A DNA stretch of 64,000 nucleotides from Minisyncoccota bacterium (GTDB lineage: Bacteria; Patescibacteriota; Minisyncoccia; Minisyncoccales; GCA-002788555). The translations under genes were made by a program, and so were the position numbers. The notes under the pieces were generated by a model. That model did no database searches, was not told the origin of the DNA, and saw only the letters and a list, made by a program, of their open reading frames with translations. Of the stretch, positions 3,653 to 21,290 are shown in pieces. Positions within the stretch are counted from its first letter, which is position 1; the number at the start of each line of letters is the position of its first letter. The stretch covers positions 13,071-77,070 of the forward strand of contig JAQUPA010000001.1 in the NCBI GenBank assembly GCA_028716825.1. The letters are read 5' to 3'.

Positions 3653-3653
3653 A

Positions 3654-4046: not shown

Positions 4047-4811
4047 TTGAATATGAACCCTCTAACTTTTATTTTTCAGAAAGTTCTCTATCAGCCATTT
4101 TTGAATATATTGGTTGTTTTTTACAACCTTCCAATGATTGATTTTGGGCTGGCTATAATTTTATTAACGATTTTAGTAAAGGCAGCGACTTGGAGACTTG
4201 ATACACATGCTATTTTAAAGCAAAGGGAGGCTCAAATAAAAGGAGCAGAAGTTCAGGAAGAGATGAAAGAACTTCAGGAAAAATACAAAGATGATCCGAT
4301 GAAACAAAGCGAAGAGATTAGAAAACTTTGGAAAGAAAAGAAGTTTAATCCTTTCTCAAGTTTCGCACCGATGATAGTACAAATAGTTATTTTGATTGCT
4401 CTTTTCCAGATTTTAAGAACAAATATTGGCCCTGAGCAGTTAAAGTTACTTTATCCATTTGTAAAAAACCCAGGAGAGATTAATCCTATGTTTTTGGGAA
4501 TTATAAACTTAGCAAAGGCAAGCCCTGTTTTGGCCGTATTAACCGGCGTTGTGCAGTTTATTTATTCAAAGCTTACTTTTTCCATGCAAAAAAAATATAA
4601 GCCAAAAACAAAGAAGAAAGATAAGAAAAAGAAAGAAGGCACTTTCCAAAAAGTAATGCAGAATCAAATGATTTATTTTTTGCCAATATTTACTGTGATT
4701 ATTTGTCTTACCTTGCCTGCGGCGTTACCTCTTTATTGGTCTTTATCTACTGCGGTTGGTATTTTACAAACAAAAATTGTTTATCGCAAAATAGAAGCCG
4801 AAAACAAATAA
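4047..4811 (+). CDS. yidC: membrane protein insertase YidC (short Gram-positive/CPR form)
   Basis: 254 aa with several TM helices, a charged coiled region and a Lys-rich tail. Position after rnpA. Confidence 0.85.
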   Translation: MNMNPLTFIFQKVLYQPFLNILVVFYNLPMIDFGLAIILLTILVKAATWRLDTHAILKQREAQIKGAEVQEEMKELQEKYKDDPMKQSEEIRKLWKEKKFNPFSSFAPMIVQIVILIALFQILRTNIGPEQLKLLYPFVKNPGEINPMFLGIINLAKASPVLAVLTGVVQFIYSKLTFSMQKKYKPKTKKKDKKKKEGTFQKVMQNQMIYFLPIFTVIICLTLPAALPLYWSLSTAVGILQTKIVYRKIEAENK

Positions 4812-4937
4812 CTCTTGATTTTTTTTGTATATATTGTATACTATTTATAGTTTGAGTATTTTGTTTGCTCTTTAAAAAATAAAATCCTTTTGGATTTTAA
4901 TTATAAATATATACGATCCTATGGGGAGGTGTCGAAG

Positions 4938-5288
4938 ATGAAGATGTTTGTTTTGATCTTCGTTTGCGTCCTGATAGCTGTAGCAGCTATATTCGTGGCA
5001 GGCTGTGGGACGAAAACCTACTACGACAAGGGAGGGAAAGAAGTTCCTCCGCCGGTAAAGCCCACTGAAGACGACATACTAAAGGCCATTGACAAGTATG
5101 CCGAGAAGTCAGGTGACTCCTATCAAGTGGTGGACATAAGCGTAGAATGGGGAGACTATTCTCATCAATACACCGCTTACGTGACGGTAGATGCGTGGAT
5201 TCCAGAAGAAGGAGTTTTCCGCACACAAACAATGATCATAGATTACAATGGCCAGTACTGGTATGTAGAAGGATGTGGCAATATATAA
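4938..5288 (+). CDS. small lipoprotein (hypothetical); gene is high-GC relative to neighbours
   Basis: Signal peptide plus lipobox (IFVAGCG). RBS GGGGAGGTG lies before ATG 4938. Local GC is about 50% against about 30% for the flanks. Confidence 0.6.
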   Translation: MKMFVLIFVCVLIAVAAIFVAGCGTKTYYDKGGKEVPPPVKPTEDDILKAIDKYAEKSGDSYQVVDISVEWGDYSHQYTAYVTVDAWIPEEGVFRTQTMIIDYNGQYWYVEGCGNI

Positions 5289-5298
5289 GGAGGTGTAT

Positions 5299-5328
5299 GA
5301 GGCGACGAAAGTCGCCTCATTGCTTTTT
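5299..5328 (+). terminator. rho-independent terminator
   Basis: Perfect hairpin GAGGCGACGAAAGTCGCCTC followed by ATTGCTTTTT. Confidence 0.8.
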
Positions 5329-5352
5329 AATAAAGAAGTAGGTATTAAAAAT

Positions 5353-6348
5353 TTAAAAGGCGTTCATAATAACTCCCACTTCTTCTTCCCATTTTGAATT
5401 TCCATTTTTACATTCATAAGTTATTTGGCCACCATCAGAGAGAGTTACTGGTGGATTTTCTCCGAGGTCCCGTTCATAACCACACCACCTTAATCTAAAT
5501 TCTTTTATGCCAGTTAATCTCTTATACATTTCAGTTCCAGCGTTTTTTGTACACGCCCTTATTCCTTCTTCCCAGGAGCCATATCTTTTGCAAGGGAGAC
5601 AGGCTATGCCACAAGGATTATTTGTTCCATAAAGCCCATTGCCCGACTGTAGATTTTGAAGGCCCATACTAGTTTCAGCGTTAGCAATGCCAAGCATAAA
5701 AGTTGGGTTAACGCCGTATTCTTTGCCCGTTTCAACATAGACATTCCCCTTTCCTATTAATGGGCTTTTAGGAAAGTTTGTTTTTAGATAATTTTCAATT
5801 TCCTCAGTCGTGGCTGCATTTGTGTCCCAAATATCAGAAGAGTTCCCACTACTGCTTGAGGGGCTTCCAGAAGAAGGATAATATTTAGACATATATTCTT
5901 CCACCATTTCTTTTAAAGAAGGCCCTTCGTAAACATACTCTTTAACGTTTAGGTCTTTTAATGTTAAAAGATTTGGGTTAATTAGCGCTAAAATTGAAGC
6001 TGAAAACAATATAATTATAAGCCCTAAGATCGCATTTAATACTTGCTCCCTTCCCTTTTCTAGCTTTGTAGGATTTCCAGAAGATGTCATTAATCGAAGC
6101 CCTCCGATTATTAACATTAACATTGCTAAGGCTCCTGCGCTAACTACGGCAAATCTATAAATATAGACAATATAATCAGGAAGAGTAGTTGTTGGGGCCT
6201 TGCCAAAAGCTTCTGGGTACTCAACTTCTGGCTCTATTTGAGCATAGGTTGTTTTAGGAGAGGCTAATTCCAAGAAAGATATAATCGCGATTAAAATCAA
6301 AAAAAAGGTAAAAGTTTTAGTAACTTTTTTGTATATAGATTTTCGCAT
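5353..6348 (-). CDS. VirB2/TrbC-type pilin module fused to a peptidoglycan-hydrolase-like (glucosaminidase/lysozyme-like) domain
   Basis: Signal peptide, then two closely spaced TM helices (YRFAVVSAGALAMLMLIIGGLRL...ILGLIIILFSASILALINPNL), the VirB2/TrbC topology. A Ser-rich linker follows. The C-terminal domain contains GVNPTFMLGIANAETSMG (resembles the glucosaminidase motif) and 6 Cys. Confidence 0.55.
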   Translation of the reverse strand: MRKSIYKKVTKTFTFFLILIAIISFLELASPKTTYAQIEPEVEYPEAFGKAPTTTLPDYIVYIYRFAVVSAGALAMLMLIIGGLRLMTSSGNPTKLEKGREQVLNAILGLIIILFSASILALINPNLLTLKDLNVKEYVYEGPSLKEMVEEYMSKYYPSSGSPSSSSGNSSDIWDTNAATTEEIENYLKTNFPKSPLIGKGNVYVETGKEYGVNPTFMLGIANAETSMGLQNLQSGNGLYGTNNPCGIACLPCKRYGSWEEGIRACTKNAGTEMYKRLTGIKEFRLRWCGYERDLGENPPVTLSDGGQITYECKNGNSKWEEEVGVIMNAF

Positions 6349-6352
6349 TATT

Positions 6353-7540
6353 TTATTTAATACAGGTACATCTTGGCATTATGTCAAGGTGGTCTGGTGC
6401 CGTATAGTAGCCTTTTTCGTATGCATACTCTGCTTCGCAAGCAGAAGTATACCCAAATTTATATCCCTCTAATCTTTTGCAATAATCCATGCAAAAATCA
6501 TGGTTTCCGCTTCTGCATTCAGGAATATTTTCTAAATTATTCTGTCCTTTAAAATAAGCAGCTGTGGTGCCGTCATTCTTACATAGACAAAAAGCAGGGT
6601 TTTTGCCCGAAGCGCTTAATTGAAAAGTTTGCACTGAGCTGAACGAATCTTCATGGGCCTGATAGCAGCTGCAAGCGACTGGATCTCCTCCATCTACATG
6701 ATTAAGTTTGGTACATTCAGAAGGAAGCCCACCTAATGCTCTGTCTTTTGGCGCTATTACTCCGTATACATTTTTATTATCTTTATGGTATTTTTGACAG
6801 AGACCCATGCAAAAGTTACCACAACTATTTGAAAGTCCTCCTTCCCTACCCTGACACTCACAGGTTTCTAAAGGTAGTCCTTCTGTACATTTAAAGTTTT
6901 TAAATTCGTCTGCATCAGGAGGACTACAGAGTGCACGAGTTAATAATTTTGCATATGCGCCTGAACTATTAACAGGAAGATCAAAAGAATTCCCCATACT
7001 TCCTAATTTTCCGAGCATTATTGAATTTGCGATAGCAATACCATTCGCAGTATAGATAAAATTCCCAGCCATTAAATCTTTTTTTATTTTATCTTCTTCG
7101 CCAGCATTACTTAATGTAGGTTCTTTTATGACTACATCTTTCAATCTTACAAGATCCGGGTTGATTGTTCTTAGGACAATATAAATACTAAAAAGAGCAA
7201 GTAGGCCTATAATTGAACGTGTTATTTTATCTCTTGCCGCAGCCTTGAGCTGGGGATTGGCAGCTGCGCCTGACCATTCTATACCGCCGATTATTATCAT
7301 AATTACTGCTAAAAAAGCGCCAACCCAAAAAGAAAATTGATAAACATACTTTATATATTCTGGTAGATTTGGTTCAGGCGGATTCCATGGATAAGTTACC
7401 TCCCAGCCTCCCCAATCTGCTGCAAAAGATAAATTAAAAATAAAAAACAGTGCAAAAACAAAAAGAATAGATAAGGCAAAAATGATTTTATTTCTCTTTT
7501 TCATATTTTTTATTTTATCCCCTATTTTGTTGGAACGCAA
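6353..7540 (-). CDS. VirB2/TrbC-type pilin module fused to a Cys-rich extracytoplasmic domain (paralog of 5353-6348)
   Basis: Same N-terminal architecture (signal peptide, then YQFSFWVGAFLAVIMIIIGGIEW...IIGLLALFSIYIVLRTINPDL). The ~200 aa C-terminal domain has 18 Cys, including CEC, CSC, CLC and CTC pairs. Confidence 0.55.
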   Translation of the reverse strand: MRSNKIGDKIKNMKKRNKIIFALSILFVFALFFIFNLSFAADWGGWEVTYPWNPPEPNLPEYIKYVYQFSFWVGAFLAVIMIIIGGIEWSGAAANPQLKAAARDKITRSIIGLLALFSIYIVLRTINPDLVRLKDVVIKEPTLSNAGEEDKIKKDLMAGNFIYTANGIAIANSIMLGKLGSMGNSFDLPVNSSGAYAKLLTRALCSPPDADEFKNFKCTEGLPLETCECQGREGGLSNSCGNFCMGLCQKYHKDNKNVYGVIAPKDRALGGLPSECTKLNHVDGGDPVACSCYQAHEDSFSSVQTFQLSASGKNPAFCLCKNDGTTAAYFKGQNNLENIPECRSGNHDFCMDYCKRLEGYKFGYTSACEAEYAYEKGYYTAPDHLDIMPRCTCIK

Positions 7541-8172
7541 GAAGCATTGCCTTTATCTCCTTGGTACCAAATAATTTTTGTGCTTTTTATGTCAACATTA
7601 TTTGTTTCTAAATAATTAAGGGCTCTTTTTTTGGCCTGTTTGCAGTCTTTTGAATTAATTATAATTGCAAAAGCGTTTTTATCTTCTAAGAAAGTTAAGT
7701 CAAAATATTGGCTAAAAAAAGGGATTTTATTTTCCATTTTAAGCATTAAAGCAGAATCTTGTTTTAAGGAAGCTTCTGTTTCTTTTCCTGTTTTAAAATT
7801 AATAACAAACGGTAGCCCCTTGAGGGGCGGATTTTTTTGGTTTTTTGTATTTAGAGTTATCTTGTAATTCTTGTTTTCCTCAAGAAAATTTATTGGTTCT
7901 ATTTTTAATGTTTTGTTTTCAATAGATGTTTTAAATTCAAAGACAGGAGATGTTTCTATTACAATTCCCTTCATGCTTTTTATTTGCGAATTAAAATATA
8001 TAAAAACATTTTTATCTATCGGGGCATCGTTGCTGTTATTTGAGGGAGAGCTGTATAATATAGAAGTTTTTGTTTCTTTTGTGAAGGAAGTTCCGCCTAG
8101 CAACCAGAACATCACCACAAAAAATAATATAATAGTAAAAATTCCTAAAAAAATTAATAATTTTGTTTTCAT
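7522..8172 (-). CDS. secreted/membrane-anchored hypothetical protein (T4SS island)
   Basis: N-terminal TM/signal, no recognisable domain. Its 3' end overlaps the next gene's start, suggesting translational coupling. Confidence 0.5.
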   Translation of the reverse strand: MKTKLLIFLGIFTIILFFVVMFWLLGGTSFTKETKTSILYSSPSNNSNDAPIDKNVFIYFNSQIKSMKGIVIETSPVFEFKTSIENKTLKIEPINFLEENKNYKITLNTKNQKNPPLKGLPFVINFKTGKETEASLKQDSALMLKMENKIPFFSQYFDLTFLEDKNAFAIIINSKDCKQAKKRALNYLETNNVDIKSTKIIWYQGDKGNASCVPTK

Positions 8173-8867
8173 CTTTCTTTTTCGTTTTTAATAATAAAAT
8201 TTGCGGCTTCCAGAATTGTATTTTCCGGAGCATTAGAACTTATTAAATAATAATAAGTTTTTTCATCTCTTTTTGCGTAGCCAAGATAAATAGTGTACGA
8301 ATATTCTATATCTCTAGTAGACTCATCTATTTGGTTATACTTAAATAAAATCGCCTTTTTACCATTTATAAGGGTTTTTTCCTCTAGTTGATTCTTGGGT
8401 AGATAAAAATTATTTTCTAAAAAATAAGGCTTAATTATTGTGCCTTCTATTAAAATAGTTTTTTTGTCTTTATTAAGAACAATAAGCCCATGATCTGAAT
8501 ATGATTTTCCTCCTTTCTTTATAAACTTTGTATTTTTTTCTGATAAGCTTTCGTTATTAACATCGTAATAAATTTCTATTTTTTCAGGAGTTTTTTCTCC
8601 TCGCCATAAATTAACCTTAAAAAGTTTATATTCTTTCGGCAGTTTTATAGGATATTTTATAGGCAGATCTGTTAAATTTTGTGCTTTTTTAAAAATATTT
8701 ATATATTTTTCTTCTGAATTTAATGGATCAAGTCCGTCTTTAAATGATTGAGTAAAAATTAAACCTTCTGGCGCTTTTTCTTTTTTATAGAAAAAAGAAA
8801 AAGACAAGATACTTAATATTATTAAAATTAATCCTGTGATAATAAAAATCTTCTTTTTTATTTGCAT
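8169..8867 (-). CDS. secreted/membrane-anchored hypothetical protein (T4SS island)
   Basis: N-terminal TM helix. Overlapping start/stop with neighbours. Confidence 0.5.
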   Translation of the reverse strand: MQIKKKIFIITGLILIILSILSFSFFYKKEKAPEGLIFTQSFKDGLDPLNSEEKYINIFKKAQNLTDLPIKYPIKLPKEYKLFKVNLWRGEKTPEKIEIYYDVNNESLSEKNTKFIKKGGKSYSDHGLIVLNKDKKTILIEGTIIKPYFLENNFYLPKNQLEEKTLINGKKAILFKYNQIDESTRDIEYSYTIYLGYAKRDEKTYYYLISSNAPENTILEAANFIIKNEKER

Positions 8868-9388
8868 GTTTTACAATTAGAAACATTAGCAGGGCTATTT
8901 TCTTCAATGCTTATGTTTTTTGGGTCTTCTGGTTGCCACTCTATGTCTAATTTTTTATAGTCAACCCCTTTTGACTTTATCCATTCCAATGCTTCTATTT
9001 TATACTGAGCATAATCTTCTTTATAGTTTTCAAATTGGTCAGCGTCGTTTAAATAGGCGTGGAGTTTTATTTTATATGATGCTTTATTTTTGCCACTGAG
9101 ATAATATTTAATTTCAAAATGGTCATTATAATACGGTAAGTATTTAGTTAATGGATTTTTGCTATAAAAATTTTCTAATTGCTTGTCTGCTTTTTTATAA
9201 TTTACTTCTGATTCTGTGTTTTCTTCGGGGTTTGTGGTTTTCTCGTTTGTGTCTCCCGTGCTTTGTTTTTTTTCTCCAATACCCCCTTGATTTATAAAGA
9301 ATATAGCGAAAAGTGCAATGATTATAATTAATGCAAGAATTGCAAATAAGAAAGAGATTGTTTGTTTACGTGTATTAAATATGCTCAT
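8858..9388 (-). CDS. membrane-anchored hypothetical protein (T4SS island)
   Basis: N-terminal TM helix and a charged extracellular region. Overlaps the upstream gene. Confidence 0.5.
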   Translation of the reverse strand: MSIFNTRKQTISFLFAILALIIIIALFAIFFINQGGIGEKKQSTGDTNEKTTNPEENTESEVNYKKADKQLENFYSKNPLTKYLPYYNDHFEIKYYLSGKNKASYKIKLHAYLNDADQFENYKEDYAQYKIEALEWIKSKGVDYKKLDIEWQPEDPKNISIEENSPANVSNCKTCK

Positions 9389-9400
9389 GTTTTAATTCTT

Positions 9401-10594
9401 TTATTTCATTATTCCTGGCACCGATGGCTCTTGGGTAGAAAAATGCATTCCGTCGCAGAAGGTATTAAAGTCTCCCATCCCACATTGTTCCTTACAGAGC
9501 CCCCAAATTGGCCAGCCATGTTTTTCAAAAACCGTAGCTACTTCAGGAGTAACTTTATATGGTCCATTACCACAATCACCAAAATTATAATTTTCATTTA
9601 TATCACAAGCAATCCCAAAGCGATGAGCTGATATCGAAGATGAGTTGCCGGAACTAGCGCCTTGTGCTTCTCTGAAACAACCGAGGGTAACGATAGGGTA
9701 TTTCATCTTGGTAAGTTCTGAGAAAATTGATTTTAAACTACCAACAACCAATTTATGTGCTGTTATTTTTCTTTTTACTTCTGAAGTGCCATTCCAAACC
9801 GTAACCTCAAAAGTTTCTAAATATTTATTTACGGCGTTACCATTTCCTCCGTACGCACCAGAGCTTAACATTTCTTTTAGACTAGCATCTAGAGCAGCTT
9901 TATCAACGCTTTCTCCTGACACACAATCGTCATTTTTTAATAATTTATAAATTGTCATTGCGCCAATATTTGAATCAGCGTGAGTCATCCCACTGTCTAT
10001 GCAGCCGTTCCAAGTCATATTTTGGTGTTGTCCATCTAAAAGGTTTACCACATAAGGAGATTTGTCGTACGGAGTATTTTTTGGTTGTCCGGGGCAAGAA
10101 TTCCCGTTTTTATCTAGCCCATCTCTGTACATGTATCCTCTATTGTAAGCTAAAAATGCATATCCAATAGCATCATCGTTGGGGTTTTCATTCAACTCCA
10201 TTTTATATACTGATTTTGCTTTGTTTTTAAGAAAATTAGCAGCTGCTAAGGTTGCTTCTTCTAACGTGGTGTATACAGTGCCATTGTCGGGGTTTTTAGT
10301 TCCTAATTTTTCACCAGAGACTGGAGATTTTTCAGGACTGCAGCCTCCTTCTCTAAAATGAACCGCTGCTAACATTTGCCAAGGAATTCCTACTTGTTTT
10401 GCAGCTTCTTGATATATTGGTTTATTTTGTTCGATTTTTGCTTTAATATCAGAACTTATTTCTGCACCCGCTATTACTGTTTCAACACAATTTGCGTCTC
10501 CGCAATAATCTTGAGCAGAAGCCTTAATAAAAATTAGGATTGTTAGCATAGTAACAAAAAAAGTTAATAACTTAATTTTTGTTTTTCTCATCAT
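9401..10594 (-). CDS. secreted cell-wall hydrolase with a C-terminal M15 (VanY-like) peptidase domain
   Basis: Signal peptide. The C-terminus has SAHRFGIACDIN and HGWPIWG...DGMHFS, matching peptidase M15 zinc-ligand motifs (SxHxxGxAxD ... WGG...D.MHFE). The N-terminal region with GIPWQMLAAVHFREGG may be a second lytic domain. Confidence 0.6.
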   Translation of the reverse strand: MMRKTKIKLLTFFVTMLTILIFIKASAQDYCGDANCVETVIAGAEISSDIKAKIEQNKPIYQEAAKQVGIPWQMLAAVHFREGGCSPEKSPVSGEKLGTKNPDNGTVYTTLEEATLAAANFLKNKAKSVYKMELNENPNDDAIGYAFLAYNRGYMYRDGLDKNGNSCPGQPKNTPYDKSPYVVNLLDGQHQNMTWNGCIDSGMTHADSNIGAMTIYKLLKNDDCVSGESVDKAALDASLKEMLSSGAYGGNGNAVNKYLETFEVTVWNGTSEVKRKITAHKLVVGSLKSIFSELTKMKYPIVTLGCFREAQGASSGNSSSISAHRFGIACDINENYNFGDCGNGPYKVTPEVATVFEKHGWPIWGLCKEQCGMGDFNTFCDGMHFSTQEPSVPGIMK

Positions 10595-11685
10595 TTATTT
10601 AAAAGCGATCTTAAGAAGGTATGAGGTTCTAAAAGTTGGGTGGGTTTTTGGACGTCATTTCCATACCATTGTGTAGAATTGGTTGTTCCAGCTGTATAAA
10701 GCTCAAAATGGCACATCGCACTTCCTCCAGAGGTGTTTGCTATTATATTTCCAATGTGTTGGCCTGATTGTATTTCTTGCCCCATACTAACTAACGGAGT
10801 GATTTCTGTATAGTGCGCAACATAGTCTCCGTGGTTAATCATCACACTGTCAGTCCCTGCAAAAAAATTTTTTATTATCAAGACGACTTTTCCTTCTTTT
10901 ATGGCATAAACCCTACAAGCTTCGGGGGCAGAGGAGGGGTTTGTAATTATTGATCTTGGACAAGTGCCTCGGGGCACGGTTATATCTAAGCCCGCATGCC
11001 TTCTGCCGCCACTTCTTTGTGCTCCGAACATGCCTCCATCTGGGCAGCTGGCTCCCGAATTTTGAGAACTGCCTGGAGTATAGCAGGGAGGAGAGTTTAT
11101 TCTGTTAATTGCTTCTTGAGATGGATTTTTAACTGGGAATCCGTTTCCGCTTAAGTCAGTAGTTGCCCCGTTTGGAGTAGCACAGACTTCTGGCTTCATC
11201 ATTTCTCCAAAGCCCATTATAAACAGAGGAGCCATAATCATAGTGGCTGCGATTACCAAATAAAGTGTTCTTCTTTCTTTAAGAACAGAGATTACGTTTA
11301 TTGTCCACATTGGCAGGAGACCTCCTATAAAAGGTATTTGTTCTAAGATGAAAGAAACTATTATTTGTTTTAAGTAGGCTTTTGATTTTCCTAAGACGCC
11401 GCTTACCCTTTGTCCCTCGTCTTTTACCTTCTCTGCAGATTTTTTAACACTAGCAGGTCCTTTTGTTGGTGTAGCCCCATGACGTTTTAACCAAGTTCCA
11501 ATAACTATTGCAGCAATAAGATCTATAAAAACGCTTACGAAGGGTATTGATGCGCTTACAATTAGCTCAAAAAGATTCGCAAAAATATCTGCAAGGTCGC
11601 AGATTATTGCGAAAGTTAACATTATAAGAAAAATCGGGCTCAGAGAACTTACTTTATTTTCTTCTTGTTCCATAAAAGAAATCAA
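10591..11685 (-). CDS. membrane-anchored M23 (LytM-type) metallopeptidase
   Basis: Multi-TM N-terminus. M23 motifs RRHAGLDI, INHGDYVAHY and CHFELY (HxxxD, HxH). Confidence 0.7.
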   Translation of the reverse strand: MISFMEQEENKVSSLSPIFLIMLTFAIICDLADIFANLFELIVSASIPFVSVFIDLIAAIVIGTWLKRHGATPTKGPASVKKSAEKVKDEGQRVSGVLGKSKAYLKQIIVSFILEQIPFIGGLLPMWTINVISVLKERRTLYLVIAATMIMAPLFIMGFGEMMKPEVCATPNGATTDLSGNGFPVKNPSQEAINRINSPPCYTPGSSQNSGASCPDGGMFGAQRSGGRRHAGLDITVPRGTCPRSIITNPSSAPEACRVYAIKEGKVVLIIKNFFAGTDSVMINHGDYVAHYTEITPLVSMGQEIQSGQHIGNIIANTSGGSAMCHFELYTAGTTNSTQWYGNDVQKPTQLLEPHTFLRSLLNK

Positions 11686-11688
11686 GCT

Positions 11689-13524
11689 TTATTTATTTTC
11701 TGTTTTCCTTTCAACCCCTTCGATCCCTTCTTCTAACTCCTCTTTGGCTTTTCTTATCGCCAAAATTTGTTCTGGATTTGTAGTGATAATTTGGTCTTCT
11801 CCAAAAGAGGCAACTACTTTTATGGCGGCATGTTTTGCGCCTGCGAAAAAGAGTCCTTCGCCAACTCTTGCCTGCAAAAGTAAATATCTTTCTTCTTTTG
11901 TTAAATTAAAAGTTTGACTTACCGTGTCTATGGTCGCTGGTGATTGTTTTAAGAGCATTTGGAGAGAAGAGTTCGAGATAATTGATTTTCCATATTCAGA
12001 TATCATAAAATCATTAACGTCTTGGGTGATTGTTGAAACACCAAGATAATATTTTCTTGCACGCTTTGCTATTCCAAAAAGGAAAGAAGCAGCTTCTTCG
12101 TGTTTCATCATAACCCAAGCTTCATCCACAATAAGATATCTTTTTTTGAGTTCTGATCTTATGATGTTCCATATATAGTGCAAAATTAAATACATTGCGA
12201 CTGGTCTTAATTCTTCCTCAAGGTCTCTTATTGAAAAGACTACCATTTTACTTCCTTCTAATTCTACGCTTGTGTGCCGGTTTAAAAATCCAGAGTAAGC
12301 GCCTGTAGTGTATTTTTCAAGACGTTTTGCGATAGACTCCCCTCCCTCCATTCCTTCAAGGACTTTTTGCAAGTCAGATAAAAGCGGAGGAGTTTGATTA
12401 TAAAAGTCAGAATCAGCAGTAATATCTCTTGCAGAATAAGTAAGATTTATTGCTTGGTCTATAATTGCATCTTCCTCTGGAGTTAGGCCTCCGAGCATTA
12501 AACGCAAGAGTCCCACAAGGTTTATTATATTTGAACGGAAAGTTCCTTCTTTTGGTTCTCCCTCAACAGCAGGAGGCAGATCAAAAGGATTTATGTGGTG
12601 GCTTGAGCTCAAAGAAATATTAAAATAAGATCCTCCTACTGTTTCTGCAAGGTATTTATATTCGTTTTCAGGGTCAATTACGATAACATCGATATCTTGA
12701 ATTAAAGAGCGGAAGATTTCTAATTTTTGGAAATAGCTTTTTCCGCTACCGCTTTTTGCAAAAGTTACCATATTTGCATTTTCGAGAGAAAATCTGTCAA
12801 AGATAATAAGAGAATTATTATGACGGTTTATCCCATAAAGTATGCCTCTGTCTGAAGTGAGCTCAAACGAAACAAAAGGAAAAACGGTAGATAGAGGCGA
12901 GGTGTTCATTGAGGTATTTGTGTTTAACTGGTCCATTGAAAGGGGCGAGACAGAATAAAAACCCTCTTTTTGGCGGAAAACAGCAGATTTTGTGTAAATA
13001 AGACTTGATTCAAAAATTTGAGTTATACTTTTTTCTATTTTTTCAAGCTGGCTTTTCTTGTCCGCATATATTGAAAAATATACTCCAACTTTAAACATTT
13101 TTTCTTCAGCCCTTGTCAATTTGTCCCTCAGTTCTTCAATGTTTTGTTGAGCAGCTTGTAGCCCTGGGTCTCTAATTAATCCCTTCTCTTCTCTTTCCAT
13201 AATTAGTGCTTCAACTTCTGTAAGTTTTTTCTGTAGTTGTCTTATAATCTTTTCTGTTGATACGGGATAGACAAAAATTGAAATATCAATTATTTCGTCC
13301 AAATTTATGATTGGGGAAAGCCAGCCCGTGGCAACTGTTTGAGGGAATGTTAAAACAAAAAAAGTTTTTGCGATTTTTTCCCCTATTTTTATATAATTTT
13401 GGAAAACCCCAACAGCTGATGGCGCTATAATGTCGTAAATATTGATAAGCCGTTCTTCTTTTTCTACTTGAAGTTCTTTTTTTGTCTCTGGATTTTCTTC
13501 TTCTTGTTTTTTTGTTGGGAACAT
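11689..13524 (-). CDS. virB4: type IV secretion/conjugation ATPase VirB4/TrbE/PrgJ-like
   Basis: 611 aa. Walker A FAKSGSGKSYF, Walker B LIVDEAWVMM. Size and layout are typical of VirB4. Confidence 0.85.
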   Translation of the reverse strand: MFPTKKQEEENPETKKELQVEKEERLINIYDIIAPSAVGVFQNYIKIGEKIAKTFFVLTFPQTVATGWLSPIINLDEIIDISIFVYPVSTEKIIRQLQKKLTEVEALIMEREEKGLIRDPGLQAAQQNIEELRDKLTRAEEKMFKVGVYFSIYADKKSQLEKIEKSITQIFESSLIYTKSAVFRQKEGFYSVSPLSMDQLNTNTSMNTSPLSTVFPFVSFELTSDRGILYGINRHNNSLIIFDRFSLENANMVTFAKSGSGKSYFQKLEIFRSLIQDIDVIVIDPENEYKYLAETVGGSYFNISLSSSHHINPFDLPPAVEGEPKEGTFRSNIINLVGLLRLMLGGLTPEEDAIIDQAINLTYSARDITADSDFYNQTPPLLSDLQKVLEGMEGGESIAKRLEKYTTGAYSGFLNRHTSVELEGSKMVVFSIRDLEEELRPVAMYLILHYIWNIIRSELKKRYLIVDEAWVMMKHEEAASFLFGIAKRARKYYLGVSTITQDVNDFMISEYGKSIISNSSLQMLLKQSPATIDTVSQTFNLTKEERYLLLQARVGEGLFFAGAKHAAIKVVASFGEDQIITTNPEQILAIRKAKEELEEGIEGVERKTENK

Positions 13525-13531
13525 AAAAATA

Positions 13532-14125
13532 TTAGTCTATTTTCGGGAAAATTGGCATTGTTTCTTTGTCGGTTTTGTCGGGATTATAAAAACCCCAAAG
13601 TAGTTCTACAATTTCATCGCTTCCGAGCAAGAGAGCGCTTACGCCTGTCCCACGAAGACCATTTATTACATATTGAGACCTTAAGTTAATTTGACTTTTC
13701 CATCTTTTAAATTCTTTGTCTGACATTTCTTTTACTGGCGGGTAAAAAGGCACAACAATATAGAAATTTTTTGATATTAAATTTGCCATTGAAGAGAGCG
13801 ATCTTATAAATTCACGATATTCATTTGCTTGGATTTTTAAAAGCTCATTTTCTTGTTTTGCTTCAACTTCTTCCAATTGTTTTAAGTAGGGTTTTAAGTT
13901 TAATTTTCTTGATTGAATAAGTATTTGAATTTCAAAATCAAGAGAATTTAGGAAGCTCTGAAATTGATAAATAACAGCTTCTTTTTCTTCGTCAGACATT
14001 AAGTCAAAATTAATGGATGAGGCCATTAAAATATTTCTCCAGCCGCCTTGTTTTAAGATGACGACATCTTCTTTTATTTTTTTTATTGTCACAAAGTCCT
14101 GGGTTGTTGCTTTTGCTCCAATCAT
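13532..14125 (-). CDS. hypothetical T4SS-associated protein
   Basis: 197 aa with no clear motif. Its position between the VirB3-like gene and VirB4 suggests a system component. Confidence 0.4.
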   Translation of the reverse strand: MIGAKATTQDFVTIKKIKEDVVILKQGGWRNILMASSINFDLMSDEEKEAVIYQFQSFLNSLDFEIQILIQSRKLNLKPYLKQLEEVEAKQENELLKIQANEYREFIRSLSSMANLISKNFYIVVPFYPPVKEMSDKEFKRWKSQINLRSQYVINGLRGTGVSALLLGSDEIVELLWGFYNPDKTDKETMPIFPKID

Positions 14126-14136
14126 AATATTTAAAA

Positions 14137-14598
14137 TTATTCTTTATTTTTAATAATATTGTTCTCGGGCCGAAATTCTTCTTCTGTTTCGTTCTTTTTC
14201 GCTTCTAACATCCAAGCCATTTTCTTTAATTTACTTTCTTCTGCCCTTCTTTGGGGTACGGTTTCTTCTTTTTTTTCTATAACTTTTTCAACCTCTTTTA
14301 AGGATACCATTTCTTGGCCTTTTTTAAACCAAATATATTCTTTTGGGTTTAAAAAATAAGAAATACCGTATGAGAATATTGAAACTAAATCTTGCCCTTG
14401 ATATTTAAACAGGGCAAAGGCTGCTCCTCCTCCGATAAGCAGAATACCCAAAAGGAAAGAAATAAAAATATTTTTAAAAATCAAATATAAAACTATAACA
14501 AAAATTAATGGACCAGCCATTAAGAAAAATTGTCTCAGAGAAAGAGGTCCTATAATTTTTGATTCTGATTCTATAAATTGGGGAACGTAATATTGCAT
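14137..14598 (-). CDS. VirB3/PrgI-like small membrane protein (putative)
   Basis: 153 aa with two adjacent TM helices near the N-terminus, located just upstream of VirB4 as in Gram-positive T4SS loci. Confidence 0.45.
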   Translation of the reverse strand: MQYYVPQFIESESKIIGPLSLRQFFLMAGPLIFVIVLYLIFKNIFISFLLGILLIGGGAAFALFKYQGQDLVSIFSYGISYFLNPKEYIWFKKGQEMVSLKEVEKVIEKKEETVPQRRAEESKLKKMAWMLEAKKNETEEEFRPENNIIKNKE

Positions 14599-15183
14599 TT
14601 ATTCTTTTTTGATTTTTTTACCAAGCGTTTCTCCCTCTGTTTTTGCTGATTCTAGTTCTTCCGAAAGTCCTTTTAAAATCTCGTTAATTTCATCTCGATC
14701 AGTTTTTTTCCTTACTTGTATTTTTTTTTCTTTTTTAACCTCCGGTGTATTTTCTATTTGGGAAGTTTTTTCTTCGGTAGATATCTTTAATGACGGGAAT
14801 TCTGTTTTTGCTCTCTCTTCGGCTTTTCCAATGATTGTGTCAATTGTGTCTTCCCCTGGTATTGTGGGTTCCCCTTCTGTTTTTGGATAAAGCATATCAA
14901 GACCCTCTTTGTAGTTTGAGAAAATCTGCGTTTCCATTTCTTTTGCAATATCTCGGCTTAACTCCTCGCTAAAACCAAATTCTTTTTTAATTTCTCCTGC
15001 CACTTTATTTTGCGACAAACTTCCATTTAGAACTTTTTCAAATATTGTATCGAGCTTATCTATGCCTTCGTCGCCTTCGCCCTTAATTTGGAACCGTCTT
15101 GCTATGTCGCAAACTTTCTCAAAATTTTTTCTATCTTTAAGAGCATTTTCTATGTTCTCTGGCAATTGATTTTCATCATCCAT
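14599..15183 (-). CDS. acidic/Lys-rich hypothetical protein
   Basis: 194 aa, highly charged, no TM helix. Confidence 0.4.
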   Translation of the reverse strand: MDDENQLPENIENALKDRKNFEKVCDIARRFQIKGEGDEGIDKLDTIFEKVLNGSLSQNKVAGEIKKEFGFSEELSRDIAKEMETQIFSNYKEGLDMLYPKTEGEPTIPGEDTIDTIIGKAEERAKTEFPSLKISTEEKTSQIENTPEVKKEKKIQVRKKTDRDEINEILKGLSEELESAKTEGETLGKKIKKE

Positions 15184-15228
15184 ATTTTTAATGAGTATTT
15201 TGGTAAAAAATTAAAAGTTTATGGGCTG

Positions 15229-17496
15229 CTATGACGTAAGGTCGATACCAGACTTTCTTATTAGTTGCGCATTTGGTCGTCCTGTTCCTCCTTTTGCTCT
15301 TGGTCCGCCAAGTTTTTCAATTAATTCATTTGCCTGGGAAGGATTTTGAACAATGTTTTGTATATTTGCTTTAACCGTGGTTATATATCCTGTTGGGTCA
15401 GCTGCTCGGTCTGGTGCTCCTTCTGTTAATCGAGCATGAATAGCTTTTCCTTTTTCTGGGCTTGAAAGTATTGTGCTTAAATCTTTTATATCAGAGGACC
15501 TTATTGTGGCTTCTACAACAAGCCTATCTTTTATGCCGCCTGCGCCATTATTTAAACTATCATCCCAGTAACTCTTTTTGGATGCACTAGTTTTTTCGTG
15601 GCGCGTCATTTTGCTAAATAGTAAATCAAGATTTTCTCTTCTGTTTAATCCTCGTGATGGGTTTGTTGAAACAATATGAGGGTTTGCTATCTCGGTTTTT
15701 TCTAGTAACTTTTTATATTTCGGATTTTTCTCTAGCTTTCCTTTTAATTTACCCCAGGCTCCTTGATCAATGTCTATGCCTTGCTTTTGGGCGGCTTCAA
15801 GGATTGCCCAAGCTCTTGCTTCTCTTCTTTTGCCAATTGTTGAATATCCTCCTATTTCTTTTCCGGCAAGTTCTGTTGCTGCTGCCCCAAGTCTCTTTTC
15901 ATCAAGGTTTGCGTACCTTGGCTGCCATTTTTTGTGATGTTTTTCTACTTCTTCAGGGCGATGTCCAGTAAGTGCCCCTGGTTTTATAGGCGTCCATTTA
16001 CTATCCTCGAGCTTGCTCGCCCAATTATATAAACTTGTTCCTGGTTTGCCAAAAACGCCTTTCCCTTTTTCGGCTCCTTTCAAGGCAGTATATCCAATAG
16101 CAGCTCCTGTGCCTACAGCTGTTAATTTGCCAAGTTTTTTGACTCCACCGATAACTTTAGCACCAACCGTGCCGCCACTTTTTACTGCTGCAAAAAGGCC
16201 AATTACCATTACGATAACAGGAAAACCTACCGTGACCAATAAAGCAATAATATTTCCAAGAAGTTCGTCTCCCACGATCGAAGCCATATCTATTGAACTT
16301 GAAACTTCTAACATTTGAGTTGCAAGGTATAAAAAGAAAGAAGCAGCAACTCCGATAAAGGACCACTGGATAACATATTGCCACCATTTTTTAAAATAGT
16401 CCCTTGTTGCAGGAAGAATGTAAGCGGCAAATGCAAGCGGCGCTAAAATTACAAGTAGCCAAATTGCAAGGTTTCTTACTAAAAAGAGAGCTGTCATTGT
16501 CATTAAAGTCCCTATTGCCATTACCATTGCAACAGCTGCTCCTATAAGATAAATTGTTGGTGCTAAGATTCCCGGATTAGGTTGATTACTTGCCCCTGCA
16601 CATTCAGCTAATATTTTATTTGCCTCGTCTTCGCTATATTTTTCACTCAAACTTTCGAGAATTGCCCAACCAGTTTCTTCTGCGTTTGGAGCTTTATCTT
16701 TTATGCATGCTTCGAAATCTGACCACTCACCTCCTAAGTTTCCACGAGGACCAGAAAGTTCTCCGCATGAGCCGTATCTCTCCTCGCATTGAGCTTTTCC
16801 AAGTACTGCCCAAGTTAAATACTGAGAAAACGTTGCTGCTGGCATTACACCACTAAATCCTGCTGAAGCAGTGGAAATAAATAAGCTTATATAATCGTTA
16901 TCTGCGTCTACTAATTTTTCAAAGCCAATGCCCCGGACAAAATAATAAACAATAATATTTCCAGCATCTACAATAAGCCCTACAAAAACAGGCGCAAAGT
17001 TGACAAGTAAAGCCATAATAATTAATACCGGGAGTAATTTTTTAATGCCATAAGCCTCAATTCCTAAAATTGTAGCAATTGCAATAGTAACAAAAGCCAA
17101 AATGAAGATCATGTTTGCCAGGGGCATAGTAACGTCTAGTCCAGCTTTAATGAAAGGATTATCTGCTTTTGTGAGAGAGAATCCCCCGATTTTATTTGTT
17201 GCTGACCATATTAGAGTATCTGTAAGTGCTTTAATAAAAATTCCTGCTAAAGAGGATATAAAGAAAGCCATAAGAGCAATTGGTCCTACGACAAGCAGGA
17301 ATAACAAAAGAAGTATAGATTTTGGGATAAATTGGTCAGCACCGAAAAGAGCAAACGCAAAACGGAAAGGAATTATTAGGCCTATTAAAATTAAAAAGAG
17401 CGAAATAAATACTACTTTTTTGTTTTTAGGATTCTTGCAAAAAGACCAAGAACGATAATAGAGATTTTTTATTTTTTGTTTCAGAGGCTCCTCCAT
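15229..17496 (-). CDS. polytopic membrane protein, VirB6/TrbL-like
   Basis: 755 aa with at least 8 TM helices in two blocks, an extracytoplasmic Cys-containing loop and a long charged C-terminal tail. This architecture resembles VirB6/TrbL. Confidence 0.55.
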   Translation of the reverse strand: MEEPLKQKIKNLYYRSWSFCKNPKNKKVVFISLFLILIGLIIPFRFAFALFGADQFIPKSILLLLFLLVVGPIALMAFFISSLAGIFIKALTDTLIWSATNKIGGFSLTKADNPFIKAGLDVTMPLANMIFILAFVTIAIATILGIEAYGIKKLLPVLIIMALLVNFAPVFVGLIVDAGNIIVYYFVRGIGFEKLVDADNDYISLFISTASAGFSGVMPAATFSQYLTWAVLGKAQCEERYGSCGELSGPRGNLGGEWSDFEACIKDKAPNAEETGWAILESLSEKYSEDEANKILAECAGASNQPNPGILAPTIYLIGAAVAMVMAIGTLMTMTALFLVRNLAIWLLVILAPLAFAAYILPATRDYFKKWWQYVIQWSFIGVAASFFLYLATQMLEVSSSIDMASIVGDELLGNIIALLVTVGFPVIVMVIGLFAAVKSGGTVGAKVIGGVKKLGKLTAVGTGAAIGYTALKGAEKGKGVFGKPGTSLYNWASKLEDSKWTPIKPGALTGHRPEEVEKHHKKWQPRYANLDEKRLGAAATELAGKEIGGYSTIGKRREARAWAILEAAQKQGIDIDQGAWGKLKGKLEKNPKYKKLLEKTEIANPHIVSTNPSRGLNRRENLDLLFSKMTRHEKTSASKKSYWDDSLNNGAGGIKDRLVVEATIRSSDIKDLSTILSSPEKGKAIHARLTEGAPDRAADPTGYITTVKANIQNIVQNPSQANELIEKLGGPRAKGGTGRPNAQLIRKSGIDLTS

Positions 17497-17530: not shown

Positions 17531-18352
17531 TTATTTCTTTTTTGCAAGGGTTTTGTAAATTTTAGTCCATTCGTCTATCGACAAACTTTGGGCCCTTCTT
17601 GAAAGATCAAGACAATGTTTCACGTGAAACATTTCTTTTTTACTTAAAACTTTCTGGAAATTATTTTTAAGCTGTTTTCGGGGCGAAGAAAACCCTGCTT
17701 TTACAATTTTAAAGAATTGATTAGCATTCATTATTTCATTTTTAGCTTTAATTAGAGGGCTTATTTTCAAAATAGCGCTATCAACTTTTGGTTTTGGCCA
17801 AAAACTATCTTTTTTAACTATTTTTACTATCTTGGGCGTTGCATAAATCTGAACTGCCACAGAAAGAAGAGACATATTTGGCGGTTTTTGACATATTCTT
17901 TTTGCAACCTCTTTTTGGACCATAAATACCATTAAAAAAGGAGGATTTTCCATTTCTAAGAATTTTCTAATTACAGGAGAAGTAATATAATAGGGCAAAT
18001 TTGCTACTACTTTATATTTTGTTCCAAAATTTTCTATTTTAGATTTGAGAATATCCTCCGGTATTATTTTTACGTTTTTAATATTTTTTATATCAAATTC
18101 TTGATTTAAAATTCGAGCCAATTCTTTATCTTTTTCAAAGGCGATTACTTTTTTTACCCTTTTTGCCAATTCTTTTGTAAGGGTTCCAAGTCCTGACCCT
18201 ACTTCAAGAATAAAATCTTCTTTTTTAAGATCTGCAGTCTCTATAACTTGATTTAATATTCCTTTTTCAATTAAAAAATTCTGTCCAAAATATTTTTTCG
18301 GCTTTAAATTATTTTTTTCAAGAGTTTCTTTAATCTTTTTTTTTAAACTCAT
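17531..18352 (-). CDS. rsmA: 16S rRNA (adenine1518/1519-N6)-dimethyltransferase
   Basis: FGQNFL motif and the SAM-binding segment LEVGSGLGTLT. Confidence 0.9.
   Translation of the reverse strand: MSLKKKIKETLEKNNLKPKKYFGQNFLIEKGILNQVIETADLKKEDFILEVGSGLGTLTKELAKRVKKVIAFEKDKELARILNQEFDIKNIKNVKIIPEDILKSKIENFGTKYKVVANLPYYITSPVIRKFLEMENPPFLMVFMVQKEVAKRICQKPPNMSLLSVAVQIYATPKIVKIVKKDSFWPKPKVDSAILKISPLIKAKNEIMNANQFFKIVKAGFSSPRKQLKNNFQKVLSKKEMFHVKHCLDLSRRAQSLSIDEWTKIYKTLAKKK
17614..17633. repeat. 20-bp perfect palindrome AATGTTTCACGTGAAACATT (inside rsmA)
   Basis: Read directly from the sequence. Encodes MFHVKH in rsmA. Confidence 0.9.
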
Positions 18353-18392: not shown

Positions 18393-18956
18393 TTATTTGG
18401 CGCGCTCAACGTATTCCCCCTTTTGGGTATTTACAACCACAATGTCCCCTTTTTTTATGAAAAACGGCGTTTTTATCTCAGCGCCAGTTTCGAGAATTAC
18501 TGGTTTTGTACCTCCCTGGGCTGTATCTCCCTTAAAAGAAGATGGAGCTTCTTTGACTTCCAGGTTTATTTTTATTGGTAGTGTTATATCAAGGACCTCA
18601 TTATTAAATTCAATTGTTTCAACCATTATATTTGGCTTTAAAAATCTTTTTTTATCCCCTATTTTCTCTTCCGGAAGAAAAAATCGCTTTGAAGGATTTT
18701 TAGGATTAGAGAAGAAATATTGTCCTCTATGGTTATAAATATATTTAAATGTTTCACGTGAAACATCCGCTTCTTCAAAGTTATCCCCGGGCTTAAAATT
18801 TCTTTTAAGAAAGGCTCCTGTTTTTAAATTTTTAATTTTTGTTTGTAAGATCGCTCCACCCCTTCCAAGGTGTAAGTGTTTTGCCTCAATTACTTCAAAC
18901 GGTTGCTTTCCTAAAATAAAAATTACACCAGGTTTTAGTTCTCCTATATTCAGCAT
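18393..18956 (-). CDS. efp: elongation factor P
   Basis: 187 aa with three OB-like domains, including LHLGRGGAILQTKIKNLKTG. Confidence 0.85.
   Translation of the reverse strand: MLNIGELKPGVIFILGKQPFEVIEAKHLHLGRGGAILQTKIKNLKTGAFLKRNFKPGDNFEEADVSRETFKYIYNHRGQYFFSNPKNPSKRFFLPEEKIGDKKRFLKPNIMVETIEFNNEVLDITLPIKINLEVKEAPSSFKGDTAQGGTKPVILETGAEIKTPFFIKKGDIVVVNTQKGEYVERAK
18749..18766. repeat. 18-bp perfect palindrome ATGTTTCACGTGAAACAT (inside efp)
   Basis: Read directly from the sequence. It falls in a different reading frame from the rsmA copy. Confidence 0.9.
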
Positions 18957-20880: not shown

Positions 20881-20888
20881 TTAAAAAT

Positions 20889-21290
20889 ATGAAAAAAAAT
20901 TATAAATTATTTCTTTTAATATTTATTTTTATTATTTCTCCATTTATTATTCAGGCAGCTGGCTTGGTGCCTTGTGGTGGAGATGGTGAGCCTAGCTGTG
21001 GTCTTTGTCATCTCTTTGTAATGATAAGAAGCGTAATTGTATTCTTAACTGGAATTGCTGCTGTTGTGCTTGCAATAATGCTTATTGTTGGGGGAATTAT
21101 GTTTGTTACAGCACATGGGAATCCTGAATGGGTGACAAAAGCAAGAAAGACCATTACAGGAGCGATAATTGGTTTTCTGATAGTTATTATGTCTTGGATT
21201 ATTGTAAATTCGGTCATAACGTTTGCTACTGGCAGTGAGAATATATTTCAAAACATGGGTCCTTGGCATAAAATCCAATGTAATCCTTAA
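20889..21290 (+). CDS. stand-alone VirB2/TrbC-type pilin
   Basis: 133 aa. Signal peptide, then two TM helices (VIVFLTGIAAVVLAIMLIVGGIMFV and GAIIGFLIVIMSWIIVNSVITF). Same module as the N-termini of 5353-6348 and 6353-7540. Confidence 0.55.
   Translation: MKKNYKLFLLIFIFIISPFIIQAAGLVPCGGDGEPSCGLCHLFVMIRSVIVFLTGIAAVVLAIMLIVGGIMFVTAHGNPEWVTKARKTITGAIIGFLIVIMSWIIVNSVITFATGSENIFQNMGPWHKIQCNP

Follow-up and report, generated by a model that had tools for sequence, protein, structure and literature searches.

A probably native type IV secretion locus near the replication origin of a Candidatus Pacebacteria chromosome, with wall-hydrolase-type domains and pilin-domain fusion proteins

What is a conjugation-like type IV secretion system (T4SS) doing beside the replication genes of a bacterium from the Candidate Phyla Radiation (CPR), and did it arrive there as a mobile island or by inheritance? 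The question is raised by a block of tightly packed genes at positions 5353-17496 of a 64-kb stretch of DNA (contig JAQUPA010000001.1; the whole stretch is hereafter called the window), which an earlier note, made from the sequence letters, had described as an island of unusual composition. From our analysis, with a probability of roughly 85%, the locus is the T4SS of a Candidatus Pacebacteria (class Paceibacteria, Patescibacteria/CPR) that is native, vertically inherited and origin-proximal, and that belongs to a Patescibacteria-specific VirB4 clade derived from the monoderm MPF-FATA conjugation machinery. It is a typical member of an already described kind of T4SS, one that sits beside the replication origin in most ultra-small CPR bacteria, and it shows all the testable defining features of the Patescibacteria clade. 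The Patescibacteria T4SS matters because few other machines are known without which members of a very large and mostly uncultured radiation cannot live as epibionts. The present locus leaves the general picture unchanged; foreign composition and the status of an island would have set it apart, but neither is true of it. It is a clean and complete Paceibacteria example, in which VirB4 is split and VirB6 extended, four domains are of wall-hydrolase type, three surface proteins are orphans and three genes encode pilin domains.

Identity and inheritance of the locus

In the open reading frame (ORF) map of the window, the block consists of 12 co-directional minus-strand ORFs, all intact, which fill 5353-17496 exactly and either overlap or are spaced by at most 45 nt. 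The packed, co-directional arrangement and its coordinates had been described correctly; the 13 genes counted in the earlier note come down to 12, as no gap is big enough for another. It is the gene spacing alone that suggests an operon structure, and a scan for promoters and terminators yielded a number of sites not above that of shuffled sequence. Family assignments from Pfam and NCBIfam given below exceed the curated cut-offs unless stated otherwise, and membrane segments and signal peptides were read from a simple hydropathy scan. By these scans the gene content proposed earlier (VirB4, VirB6-like and VirB3-like proteins, M23 and M15 hydrolases, three secreted proteins and two pilin fusions) was essentially right, and hidden Markov model (HMM) searches for VirB4 and VirB6 both gave matches above the curated cut-offs. 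The system also reaches past the flagged range, with a further VirB2-like pilin gene at 20889-21290 on the plus strand.

The VirB4 ATPase body, a protein of 611 aa encoded at 11689..13524 (minus strand), scored 360.8 bits against the NCBIfam model conju_CD1110 (cut-off 325) and 87 bits against Pfam P-loop_TraG (E = 1e-24), and its Walker A (AKSGSGKS) and Walker B (LIVDE) motifs are intact. It also matches the NCBIfam model VirB4_plasma below the curated cut-off, and its best solved relative is a Gram-positive VirB4 (PDB 4ag5, E = 3e-41). In a database search all 8000 scored candidates had E <= 1e-10. Among the 120 matches listed the identity was 59-100%, and nearly all of those with a source name were proteins of Patescibacteria metagenome-assembled genomes (MAGs), including one 'Candidatus Pacebacteria' MAG protein that is 100% identical. 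Among plasmid proteins the best matches were VirB4 of Bacillota and Actinomycetota, several of them labelled CD1110 family, at 27-36% identity. By this similarity ranking the VirB4 of the locus appears to sit among its Patescibacteria counterparts, apart from the VirB4 of plasmids or of an integrative and conjugative element (ICE).

For comparison we collected related loci, 80 from distinct GTDB species and three closer metagenome loci, of which 50 are at least 15 kb long. All 50 carry VirB4 split into two genes, as in the window. Here the first piece is a TrsD-like protein of 197 aa at 13532..14125 (minus strand), a separately encoded VirB4 N-terminal domain: it covers positions 1-171 of conju_CD1110, and the 611-aa ATPase covers positions 185-730 of the same profile. 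The 197-aa ORF matches the TrsD model NF041427 below the curated family cut-off, is 76% identical to an ORF labelled PF26593 'TraC-like' in the annotated related locus L003, and aligns with the N-terminus of a rare fused VirB4 of 804 aa (P0058). A read-through or an alternative genetic code fusing the two ORFs was ruled out, as the stop and the next ATG lie in different frames and the split is kept in all relatives. Within the clade a split VirB4 is normal and is no sign of decay; TrsD is the commonest T4SS component across Patescibacteria (PMC12102498).

The position of the block on the chromosome is equally conserved. It is flanked by dnaN, dnaA, rpmH, rnpA and yidC on one side and by rsmA (ksgA) on the other, and the order rsmA-VirB6-x-PrgI-TrsD-VirB4-...-yidC-rnpA-dnaA-dnaN, together with the relative orientation, is kept in most of the 50 loci, L003 being an annotated example; for the origin-proximal neighbours this holds in 33-39 of the 50. 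TrsD and VirB4 were found in 50 loci, PrgI in 49, rsmA in 39, yidC in 38, dnaA in 36, dnaN in 33 and VirB6 in 30. Since the same slot between rsmA and yidC/rnpA/dnaA/dnaN is occupied in most of these loci, with VirB4 identity down to 54%, the T4SS block is an old, vertically inherited chromosomal module. The earlier note had remarked that the block breaks the gene direction after yidC. The switch is real, but it is not a signature of insertion: genes stay on the minus strand as far as 20420, the run taking in the housekeeping genes rsmA, efp and cca, and because order and orientation are kept in most related loci, the switch is ancestral.

A 16-nt palindrome, TGTTTCACGTGAAACA, occurs in four exact copies at 17616-17631, 18750-18765, 20494-20509 and 20521-20536, and nowhere else in the 64 kb. 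Two of the copies are intragenic, one in efp and one in rsmA, where it encodes MFHVKH against unrelated residues in relatives and so has reshaped the coding sequence. Because a literature search with this element yields ParB/parS papers, and because the parS 18-mer is widespread (it occurs in at least 120 metagenome contigs, whose GC spans 26-72%) and often clustered, the palindrome is by its sequence assigned as the canonical chromosomal parS, the ParB-binding centromere; as such it was ruled out as an operator of the T4SS operon. The four parS sites at 17.6-20.5 kb, along with dnaN, dnaA, rpmH, rnpA and yidC, place the block near the origin. In a search for DnaA boxes 24 sites matched with one mismatch where 15.7 were expected; the dnaA-rpmH spacer contained none of them, and oriC was not located.

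The composition of the block had been given as about 40% GC against about 30% in core genes, and had been called non-canonical. GC and k-mer profiles of the window do not bear this out. With rRNA excluded, GC is 35.4% in the block and 34.2% in the rest, and GC at third codon positions (GC3) is 26.7% and 27.0%, respectively. Measured from the window mean, codon usage has a median distance of 0.110 in the block and 0.110 outside it (Mann-Whitney p = 0.87), and the tetranucleotide distances across the block (0.13-0.18) are typical of the window, toward the low end of its range, so GC3, codon and tetranucleotide usage are all native. Some genes of the block reach 37-40% GC; as the excess is confined to codon positions 1 and 2, it reflects amino-acid content. 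The GC of 40.8% in the interval 5001-6000 is due in part to an unrelated lipoprotein gene, itself rich in GC, at 4938-5288 (plus strand).

Signs of mobility were likewise missing. A search for direct repeats flanking the block found none, and among the window ORFs scanned Pfam recognised no integrase, though three mid-sized ORFs were without a Pfam match. In agreement with the earlier note, Pfam scans of ORFs of at least 250 aa gave no relaxase, VirD4 or VirB11 in the 64-kb window, and tblastn of the window with the CD1115-family VirD4 and the relaxase of a Clostridium perfringens plasmid gave nothing better than E = 1. Within the window the locus lacks the following features of a conjugative element: a type IV coupling protein (T4CP), a relaxase, a Pfam-recognisable integrase, atypical composition and patchy distribution. 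Given the native composition, the lack of repeats and of a Pfam-recognisable integrase, and the same slot in most of 50 relatives, the word 'island' had to be dropped. As relaxase, coupling protein and VirB11 are absent nearby, plasmid transfer is unlikely to be the job of this locus. The suggestion that it fits the CPR T4SS type and would serve host contact rather than plasmid transfer stood up in that the system is of CPR type and plasmid transfer is unlikely; its description as 'minimal' did not, since a locus with four peptidoglycan-hydrolase-type domains and three pilin-domain genes is not minimal in content.

These features coincide with a recent survey of 3,035 Patescibacteria genomes, which found a monophyletic VirB4 clade nested in MPF-FATA, whose virB4 genes have as neighbours TrsD, PrgI/VirB3, VirB6, PF18895 pilins and hydrolases, M23 among them (Quinonero-Coronel et al. 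2025, PMC12102498). In the same survey, the Paceibacteria T4SS cluster lies close to dnaA, dnaN, rnpA, rpmH and ksgA, relaxases occur in 103 of the 3,035 genomes, and VirD4 homologues are present in most genomes, mostly far from virB4. The window locus shares with those systems a separate TrsD, PrgI/VirB3, VirB6, PF18895 pilins and an M23 hydrolase, the lack of a relaxase or T4CP nearby, and the same dnaA/dnaN/rnpA/rpmH/ksgA(rsmA) neighbourhood. Nothing essential differs; specific to the window are the lysozyme-like + M15 hydrolase, the three orphan anchored proteins, and the fusions of pilin domains to a GH73-type and a Cys-rich module.

Translocon core, cell-wall hydrolases and anchored proteins

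The block opens, beside rsmA, with an extended VirB6/TrbL-type polytopic channel protein of 755 aa at 15229..17496 (minus strand; Pfam TrbL 37.7 bits, cut-off 25.9), for which the hydropathy scan gives about eight hydrophobic segments, a Cys-containing hydrophilic loop at residues ~185-310 and a hydrophilic C-terminal domain of 300 aa. VirB6 homologues adjoin rsmA in the same position in 30 of the 50 related loci. Next to it, at 14599..15183 (minus strand), lies a charged protein of 194 aa, which has neither a membrane segment nor a Pfam or NCBIfam match. In 14 related loci phmmer found positional homologues of it immediately upstream of PrgI, and we regard it as a conserved accessory between virB6 and prgI. 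PrgI itself, a small VirB3-like membrane protein of 153 aa at 14137..14598 (minus strand; Pfam PrgI 35 bits, cut-off 27), immediately precedes TrsD-VirB4 in 49 of the 50 loci. The locus is thereby predicted to encode a membrane translocon made of VirB6, PrgI/VirB3 and a two-piece VirB4. The conserved core comprises VirB6, the 194-aa protein, PrgI, TrsD, VirB4 and the membrane domain that follows VirB4.

This membrane domain belongs to the first of two wall hydrolases, a membrane-anchored protein at 10591..11685 (minus strand) with a four-segment polytopic N-domain (residues ~10-170) and a C-terminal M23 domain of the LytM type (Pfam Peptidase_M23, 37.5 bits). In relatives the polytopic N-domain recurs right after VirB4, either alone or joined to Peptidase_C39_2. 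In the M23 domain (residues ~225-335) the zinc ligands, HxxxD and a final His, are retained, and both catalytic histidines are substituted (YxHL to YTE, HxH to MCH). The active site was aligned with a lysostaphin sequence that we take to be the reference. The M23 domain of a pilin fusion in L003 (L003:15113-16507) carries the same substitutions (YTE/YGE, MCH), and the two would belong to a non-canonical M23 subfamily that is conserved and may or may not be active.

The second hydrolase, at 9401..10594 (minus strand), carries a signal peptide and is predicted to be a secreted bifunctional enzyme, with an N-domain (residues ~45-220) resembling lysozymes and lytic transglycosylases and a C-terminal M15_4 metallopeptidase domain (Pfam Peptidase_M15_4, 36.5 bits). 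The N-domain was modelled by AlphaFold2 from an alignment of 17 sequences with a predicted local distance difference test (pLDDT) score >90. Nearly all of the top 50 Foldseek matches of this model in the PDB were lytic transglycosylases, g-type lysozymes and related cell-wall glycosidases (e.g., MltF, MltE, GEWL and FlgJ), with E ~1e-2 and probability up to 0.99. Glu82 and an AYNRG motif are invariant among homologues of the domain, in agreement with the lysozyme/transglycosylase-like fold. The domain is a shuffled module, as its homologues (P0127-P0137) bear Amidase_2, M23 + Amidase_2, C39_2, M23 or PF26571 in place of M15. The protein is the putative functional equivalent of VirB1. The arrangement expected of VirB1-type hydrolases is present, with the M23 protein directly downstream of virB4 and the lysozyme/lytic-transglycosylase-like + M15 protein after it. 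Together with the probable GH73 module on one of the pilin proteins described below, the locus would encode four wall-hydrolase-type domains.

Three further ORFs of the block each have one N-terminal hydrophobic anchor by hydropathy and are predicted to be bitopic exported proteins. The protein of 176 aa at 8858..9388 (minus strand; hydrophobic segment 14-32) is lineage-specific, with no credible family match and no homologue in the 83 related loci. The protein of 232 aa at 8169..8867 (minus strand) was modelled with a pLDDT of 80 and has an alpha/beta fold that resembles RseB/MucB/LpqN; a search of 1.84 billion representative proteins gave just 12 relatives of it. We had considered this protein as the missing VirB8, a bitopic protein with an NTF2 fold (PrgL/TraM/TcpC type), and the fold comparison (RseB/MucB/LolA-like) ruled it out. 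The protein of 216 aa at 7522..8172 (minus strand) has a bacterial Ig-like domain (Pfam Big_5, 27.4 bits, cut-off 23.6) and no homologue among the related loci. All accessory proteins of the locus bear an N-terminal signal or anchor, and because of this they would be exported by Sec rather than drawn from the cytoplasm.

Gene turnover is fast downstream of virB4. The M15, 176-aa and Big_5 proteins are without counterpart in the fetched loci, the M15 gene of the nearest relative running off the end of its locus. In this nearest relative, L001 (ERZ4756918 NODE_570; 139-12614), whose VirB4 is 85% identical, the module is locally rearranged, with VirB6-rsmA-efp-cca on one strand and PrgI-TrsD-VirB4-pilin on the opposite strand, and Peptidase_C39_2 stands in place of M23 on the conserved post-VirB4 membrane domain. 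A conserved core joined to a fast-turnover cassette of hydrolases and pilin fusions is the pattern expected of host-specific functions in contact or attack.

Conjugative systems of monoderm bacteria help to delimit what is particular to the locus. With the MPF-FATA systems of Bacillota (the C. perfringens plasmid NZ_CP143494.1 and the Prg/Pcf system of pCF10) it shares the core order PrgI(VirB3)-VirB4-wall hydrolase, with a VirB6-type protein upstream. The C. perfringens plasmid differs in having VirB4 as one protein of 783 aa (identity to the window VirB4 ~30%), with relaxase, MobC and VirD4 beside it and without VirB2-like pilins. The Trs system of pGO1 has, like the window, a small separate ORF homologous to the VirB4 N-terminus (TrsD), the match being below the curated cut-off; the window pilins and VirB4 also match their counterparts in the Mycoplasma ICE (Mbov_0395, pilin-like, and Mbov_0397, VirB4) below the curated cut-offs. 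Both pGO1 Trs and the Mycoplasma ICE are conjugative elements with relaxase and T4CP, unlike the window locus.

The T4SS of Southlakia epibionticum ML1 is a further parallel: its genes SEML1_0006-0019, including an array of pilins, are essential for epibiotic growth by transposon sequencing, and the system has no recognisable coupling protein or relaxase (Wang et al. 2023, PMC10633639). As in the window, it is a T4SS of monoderm type in which the cluster includes pilin genes and virB4 is followed downstream by peptidase/lysozyme genes; its low locus tags hint at a place near the origin. It differs in belonging to the class Saccharimonadia and in having six divergent pilins, as against three pilin-domain genes in the window, two of which are long fusions. 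Essentiality has been shown for ML1 only.

Pilin-domain proteins and the possible role of the system

The last two ORFs of the block encode long proteins that each begin with a VirB2-like pilin domain. In the first, at 6353..7540 (minus strand), a signal peptide and two hydrophobic helices (residues ~60-125; Pfam T4SS_pilin 27.1 bits, cut-off 26.6) are followed by a Cys-rich C-terminal module of 270 aa with 18 Cys, which matches solely the equivalent pilin ORF of L003. In the second, at 5353..6348 (minus strand), hydropathy again gives a signal peptide and two hydrophobic helices (T4SS_pilin 35.1 bits), followed by a Ser-rich linker and a probable N-acetylglucosaminidase module of the GH73 type. 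The evidence for this module is weak yet consistent: Pfam Glucosaminidase gives E = 4e-5, below its cut-off, an NCBIfam peptidoglycan hydrolase model gives E = 4e-7, and cell-wall hydrolases of the PDB are matched at E ~0.5 with the catalytic 'ET' aligned.

The third pilin gene, at 20889..21290 (plus strand), lies between tRNA-Arg and tRNA-Lys and encodes a short protein of 133 aa with a signal peptide and two hydrophobic helices (T4SS_pilin 36.5 bits, cut-off 26.6). In L003 an orthologue of 142 aa stands beside nusA, and in L001 one of 202 aa follows VirB4. The protein of the window has the canonical size of VirB2 and is the best candidate for the major fibre subunit. The leader of the gene (20690-20888), about 200 nt long and GC-richer, has an unusually stable predicted fold (z = -3.4; 0 of 200 shuffles equal); it has no Rfam match and its sequence is not conserved in the related loci. 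The pilin domains of the window also match the Mycoplasma 'pilin-like conjugal transfer protein' model below the curated cut-off.

Long pilin-domain proteins are not peculiar to this locus. An iterated HMM survey gave 99 pilin-domain ORFs in 63 related loci, with a median length of 328 aa and the longest of 1062 aa, and 75 of the 99 have a C-terminal extension of more than 100 aa past the pilin domain (long examples are L055:12262-15450, L034:12099-14786 and the pilin-M23 fusion of L003 mentioned above). We then scanned 101 pilin-domain proteins, i.e., the 99 surveyed and the two from the window block, for fused Pfam domains. The scan gave SLT in 17, GDSL lipase in three, M23 in two, and C39_2, glucosaminidase, SLT_3, LTD and crystallin once each, so that a recognisable hydrolase or lipase domain is present in about a quarter of the 101. 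No description of pilin-enzyme fusions in Paceibacteria loci was found in the literature searched, and the long fusions are not discussed in PMC12102498.

How could such proteins be used? In Agrobacterium, VirB4 acts as a pilin dislocase. On this basis we propose, tentatively and at somewhat less than even odds, that the locus encodes a coupling-protein-independent machine for assembly and display, which would present pilin-borne modules to the host. VirB4, VirB3 and VirB6 would act as the assembly motor without a coupling protein, pulling membrane-inserted pilin-domain proteins out into a short surface fibre or a conduit across the own wall of the cell. The hydrolases of the locus would open the wall of the producer and probably that of the host too, and the pilin-borne hydrolase and Cys-rich modules would be shown to the host envelope, giving a contact for the exchange of material. 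A role in assembly and display is favoured because the accessory proteins would all enter via Sec and a coupling protein is absent, and the use of the pilin domain as a carrier is supported by the extensions in 75 of the 99 surveyed ORFs. A bolder generalisation, which we consider rather unlikely, is that the pilin domain of Paceibacteria is a general module for T4SS-dependent export and display, a two-helix hairpin extracted by VirB4 that would bear envelope-degrading or envelope-binding modules (SLT, GH73, M23, C39-like, GDSL lipase or Cys-rich) to the host surface. If this were true, the display module would amount to an 'enzyme-armed' pilus breaching the host wall.

Several points weigh against our account of the locus and its role. 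The function of Patescibacteria T4SS has been called 'completely unknown' (PMC11665869). The proposed mechanism presupposes the polymerisation of pilin domains that bear modules of 200-900 aa, and the M23 hydrolase, with its non-canonical active site, may be inactive. A VirB8-like component was not found, the one candidate modelled (the 232-aa ORF) having an RseB/LolA-like fold. A VirD4 homologue probably exists elsewhere in the genome, beyond the 64 kb, because most Patescibacteria genomes have one far from virB4 (PMC12102498). Finally, the placement of VirB4 in the Patescibacteria clade is suggested by a similarity ranking and not by a phylogeny.

Among the other explanations, the one that fares best is an inward machine, i.e., a ComB/Ced-like importer of host DNA, RNA or nucleotides for an organism unable to make nucleotides, which in our estimate is unlikely. 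The absence of a coupling protein and relaxase from the locus would fit it as well, and the T4SS has been proposed as a nucleotide route, ComEC being dispensable and the T4SS essential in S. epibionticum (PMC11665869). In addition, a cultivated relative is reported to feed on host RNA and to form tubes at the interface which are possibly T4SS pili (bioRxiv 10.64898/2026.06.21.733656). The window VirB4 does match the NCBIfam model CedB, but weakly; its 43 bits are far below the cut-off of 700 and reflect general VirB4 similarity. Moreover, neither Pfam nor NCBIfam identified in the cluster a nuclease, a protein that binds DNA or RNA, or a channel like ComEC, the many wall hydrolases and surface modules are in themselves no argument for import, and import by a Patescibacteria T4SS has no demonstrated case.

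Quite improbable, in our judgement, is an outward translocator of cytoplasmic effectors or DNA, for which the coupling protein, and possibly a relaxase, would be encoded elsewhere in the genome. The remote VirD4 genes of most Patescibacteria genomes (PMC12102498) leave room for it, the window being 64 kb only, and the delivery of effectors has been speculated upon (PMC11665869). However, the VirD4 homologue of S. epibionticum is non-essential and its T4SS essential (PMC12102498, citing PMC10633639), and relaxases are present in just 103 of 3,035 Patescibacteria genomes (PMC12102498). The cluster itself holds no candidate cytoplasmic effector, all accessory proteins having N-termini of the Sec type.

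The two remaining explanations are much weaker. A recently acquired ICE or genomic island, with the T4SS moving the element, would account for the gene direction opposite to rpmH-rnpA-yidC, for the genes of 37-40% GC and for a VirB4 family found otherwise on conjugative plasmids and ICEs. We hold it to be extremely improbable, and composition, synteny and the absent mobility genes largely rule it out: in GC3, codon and tetranucleotide usage the block cannot be told apart from the remainder of the window, relaxase, T4CP and flanking repeats were not found there, nor was a Pfam-recognisable integrase among the ORFs scanned (three mid-sized ones being without a Pfam match), and the block occupies the same chromosomal slot in most of 50 loci within a minus-strand run that includes rsmA, efp and cca. 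Least credible of all is that the locus is what is left of an ancient conjugation system, decaying and without function, as the two-ORF VirB4, the replaced catalytic histidines of M23 and the missing VirB8, T4CP and relaxase might suggest, since the split is conserved clade-wide (50/50 loci; also PMC12102498), VirB4 is 54-85% identical across Paceibacteria-type lineages with intact Walker motifs, none of the 12 closely packed ORFs is broken, and the homologous system of Saccharibacteria is essential (PMC10633639).

Other features of the window

Between yidC and the T4SS block, at 4938-5288 (plus strand), lies a gene for a lipoprotein of 116 aa (lipobox VAGC, good ribosome-binding site; 44% GC, GC3 0.49), followed by a strong terminator with a 10-bp stem at 5297-5320. 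The lipoprotein has no homologue in the related loci or the family libraries, and its gene is a compositional outlier that may be a small acquired gene. A structured RNA in the GC-rich interval 4812-5352 was ruled out, there being no Rfam match at E <= 1 and the interval holding the lipoprotein gene and the terminator. The strongest codon-usage outliers of the window are the adenylosuccinate lyase gene at 47849-49225 (plus strand; 51% GC, GC3 0.55) and a sigma-70-family gene at 43026-43817 (plus strand; 42% GC, GC3 0.46), each of which makes a stronger case for horizontal acquisition than the T4SS block does.

The 23S and 5S rRNA genes are at 23845-27052 (plus strand), with nusA and ppa directly upstream. 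Since no 16S rRNA gene is found anywhere in the 64-kb window that holds them, the rRNA operon would be unlinked. Two ORFs, one of 629 aa at 33990-35879 (minus strand) and one of 470 aa at 29440-30852 (plus strand), have no credible family match; the latter contains a proline/acidic repeat region with faint similarity to internalin and S-layer proteins and may encode a surface protein.

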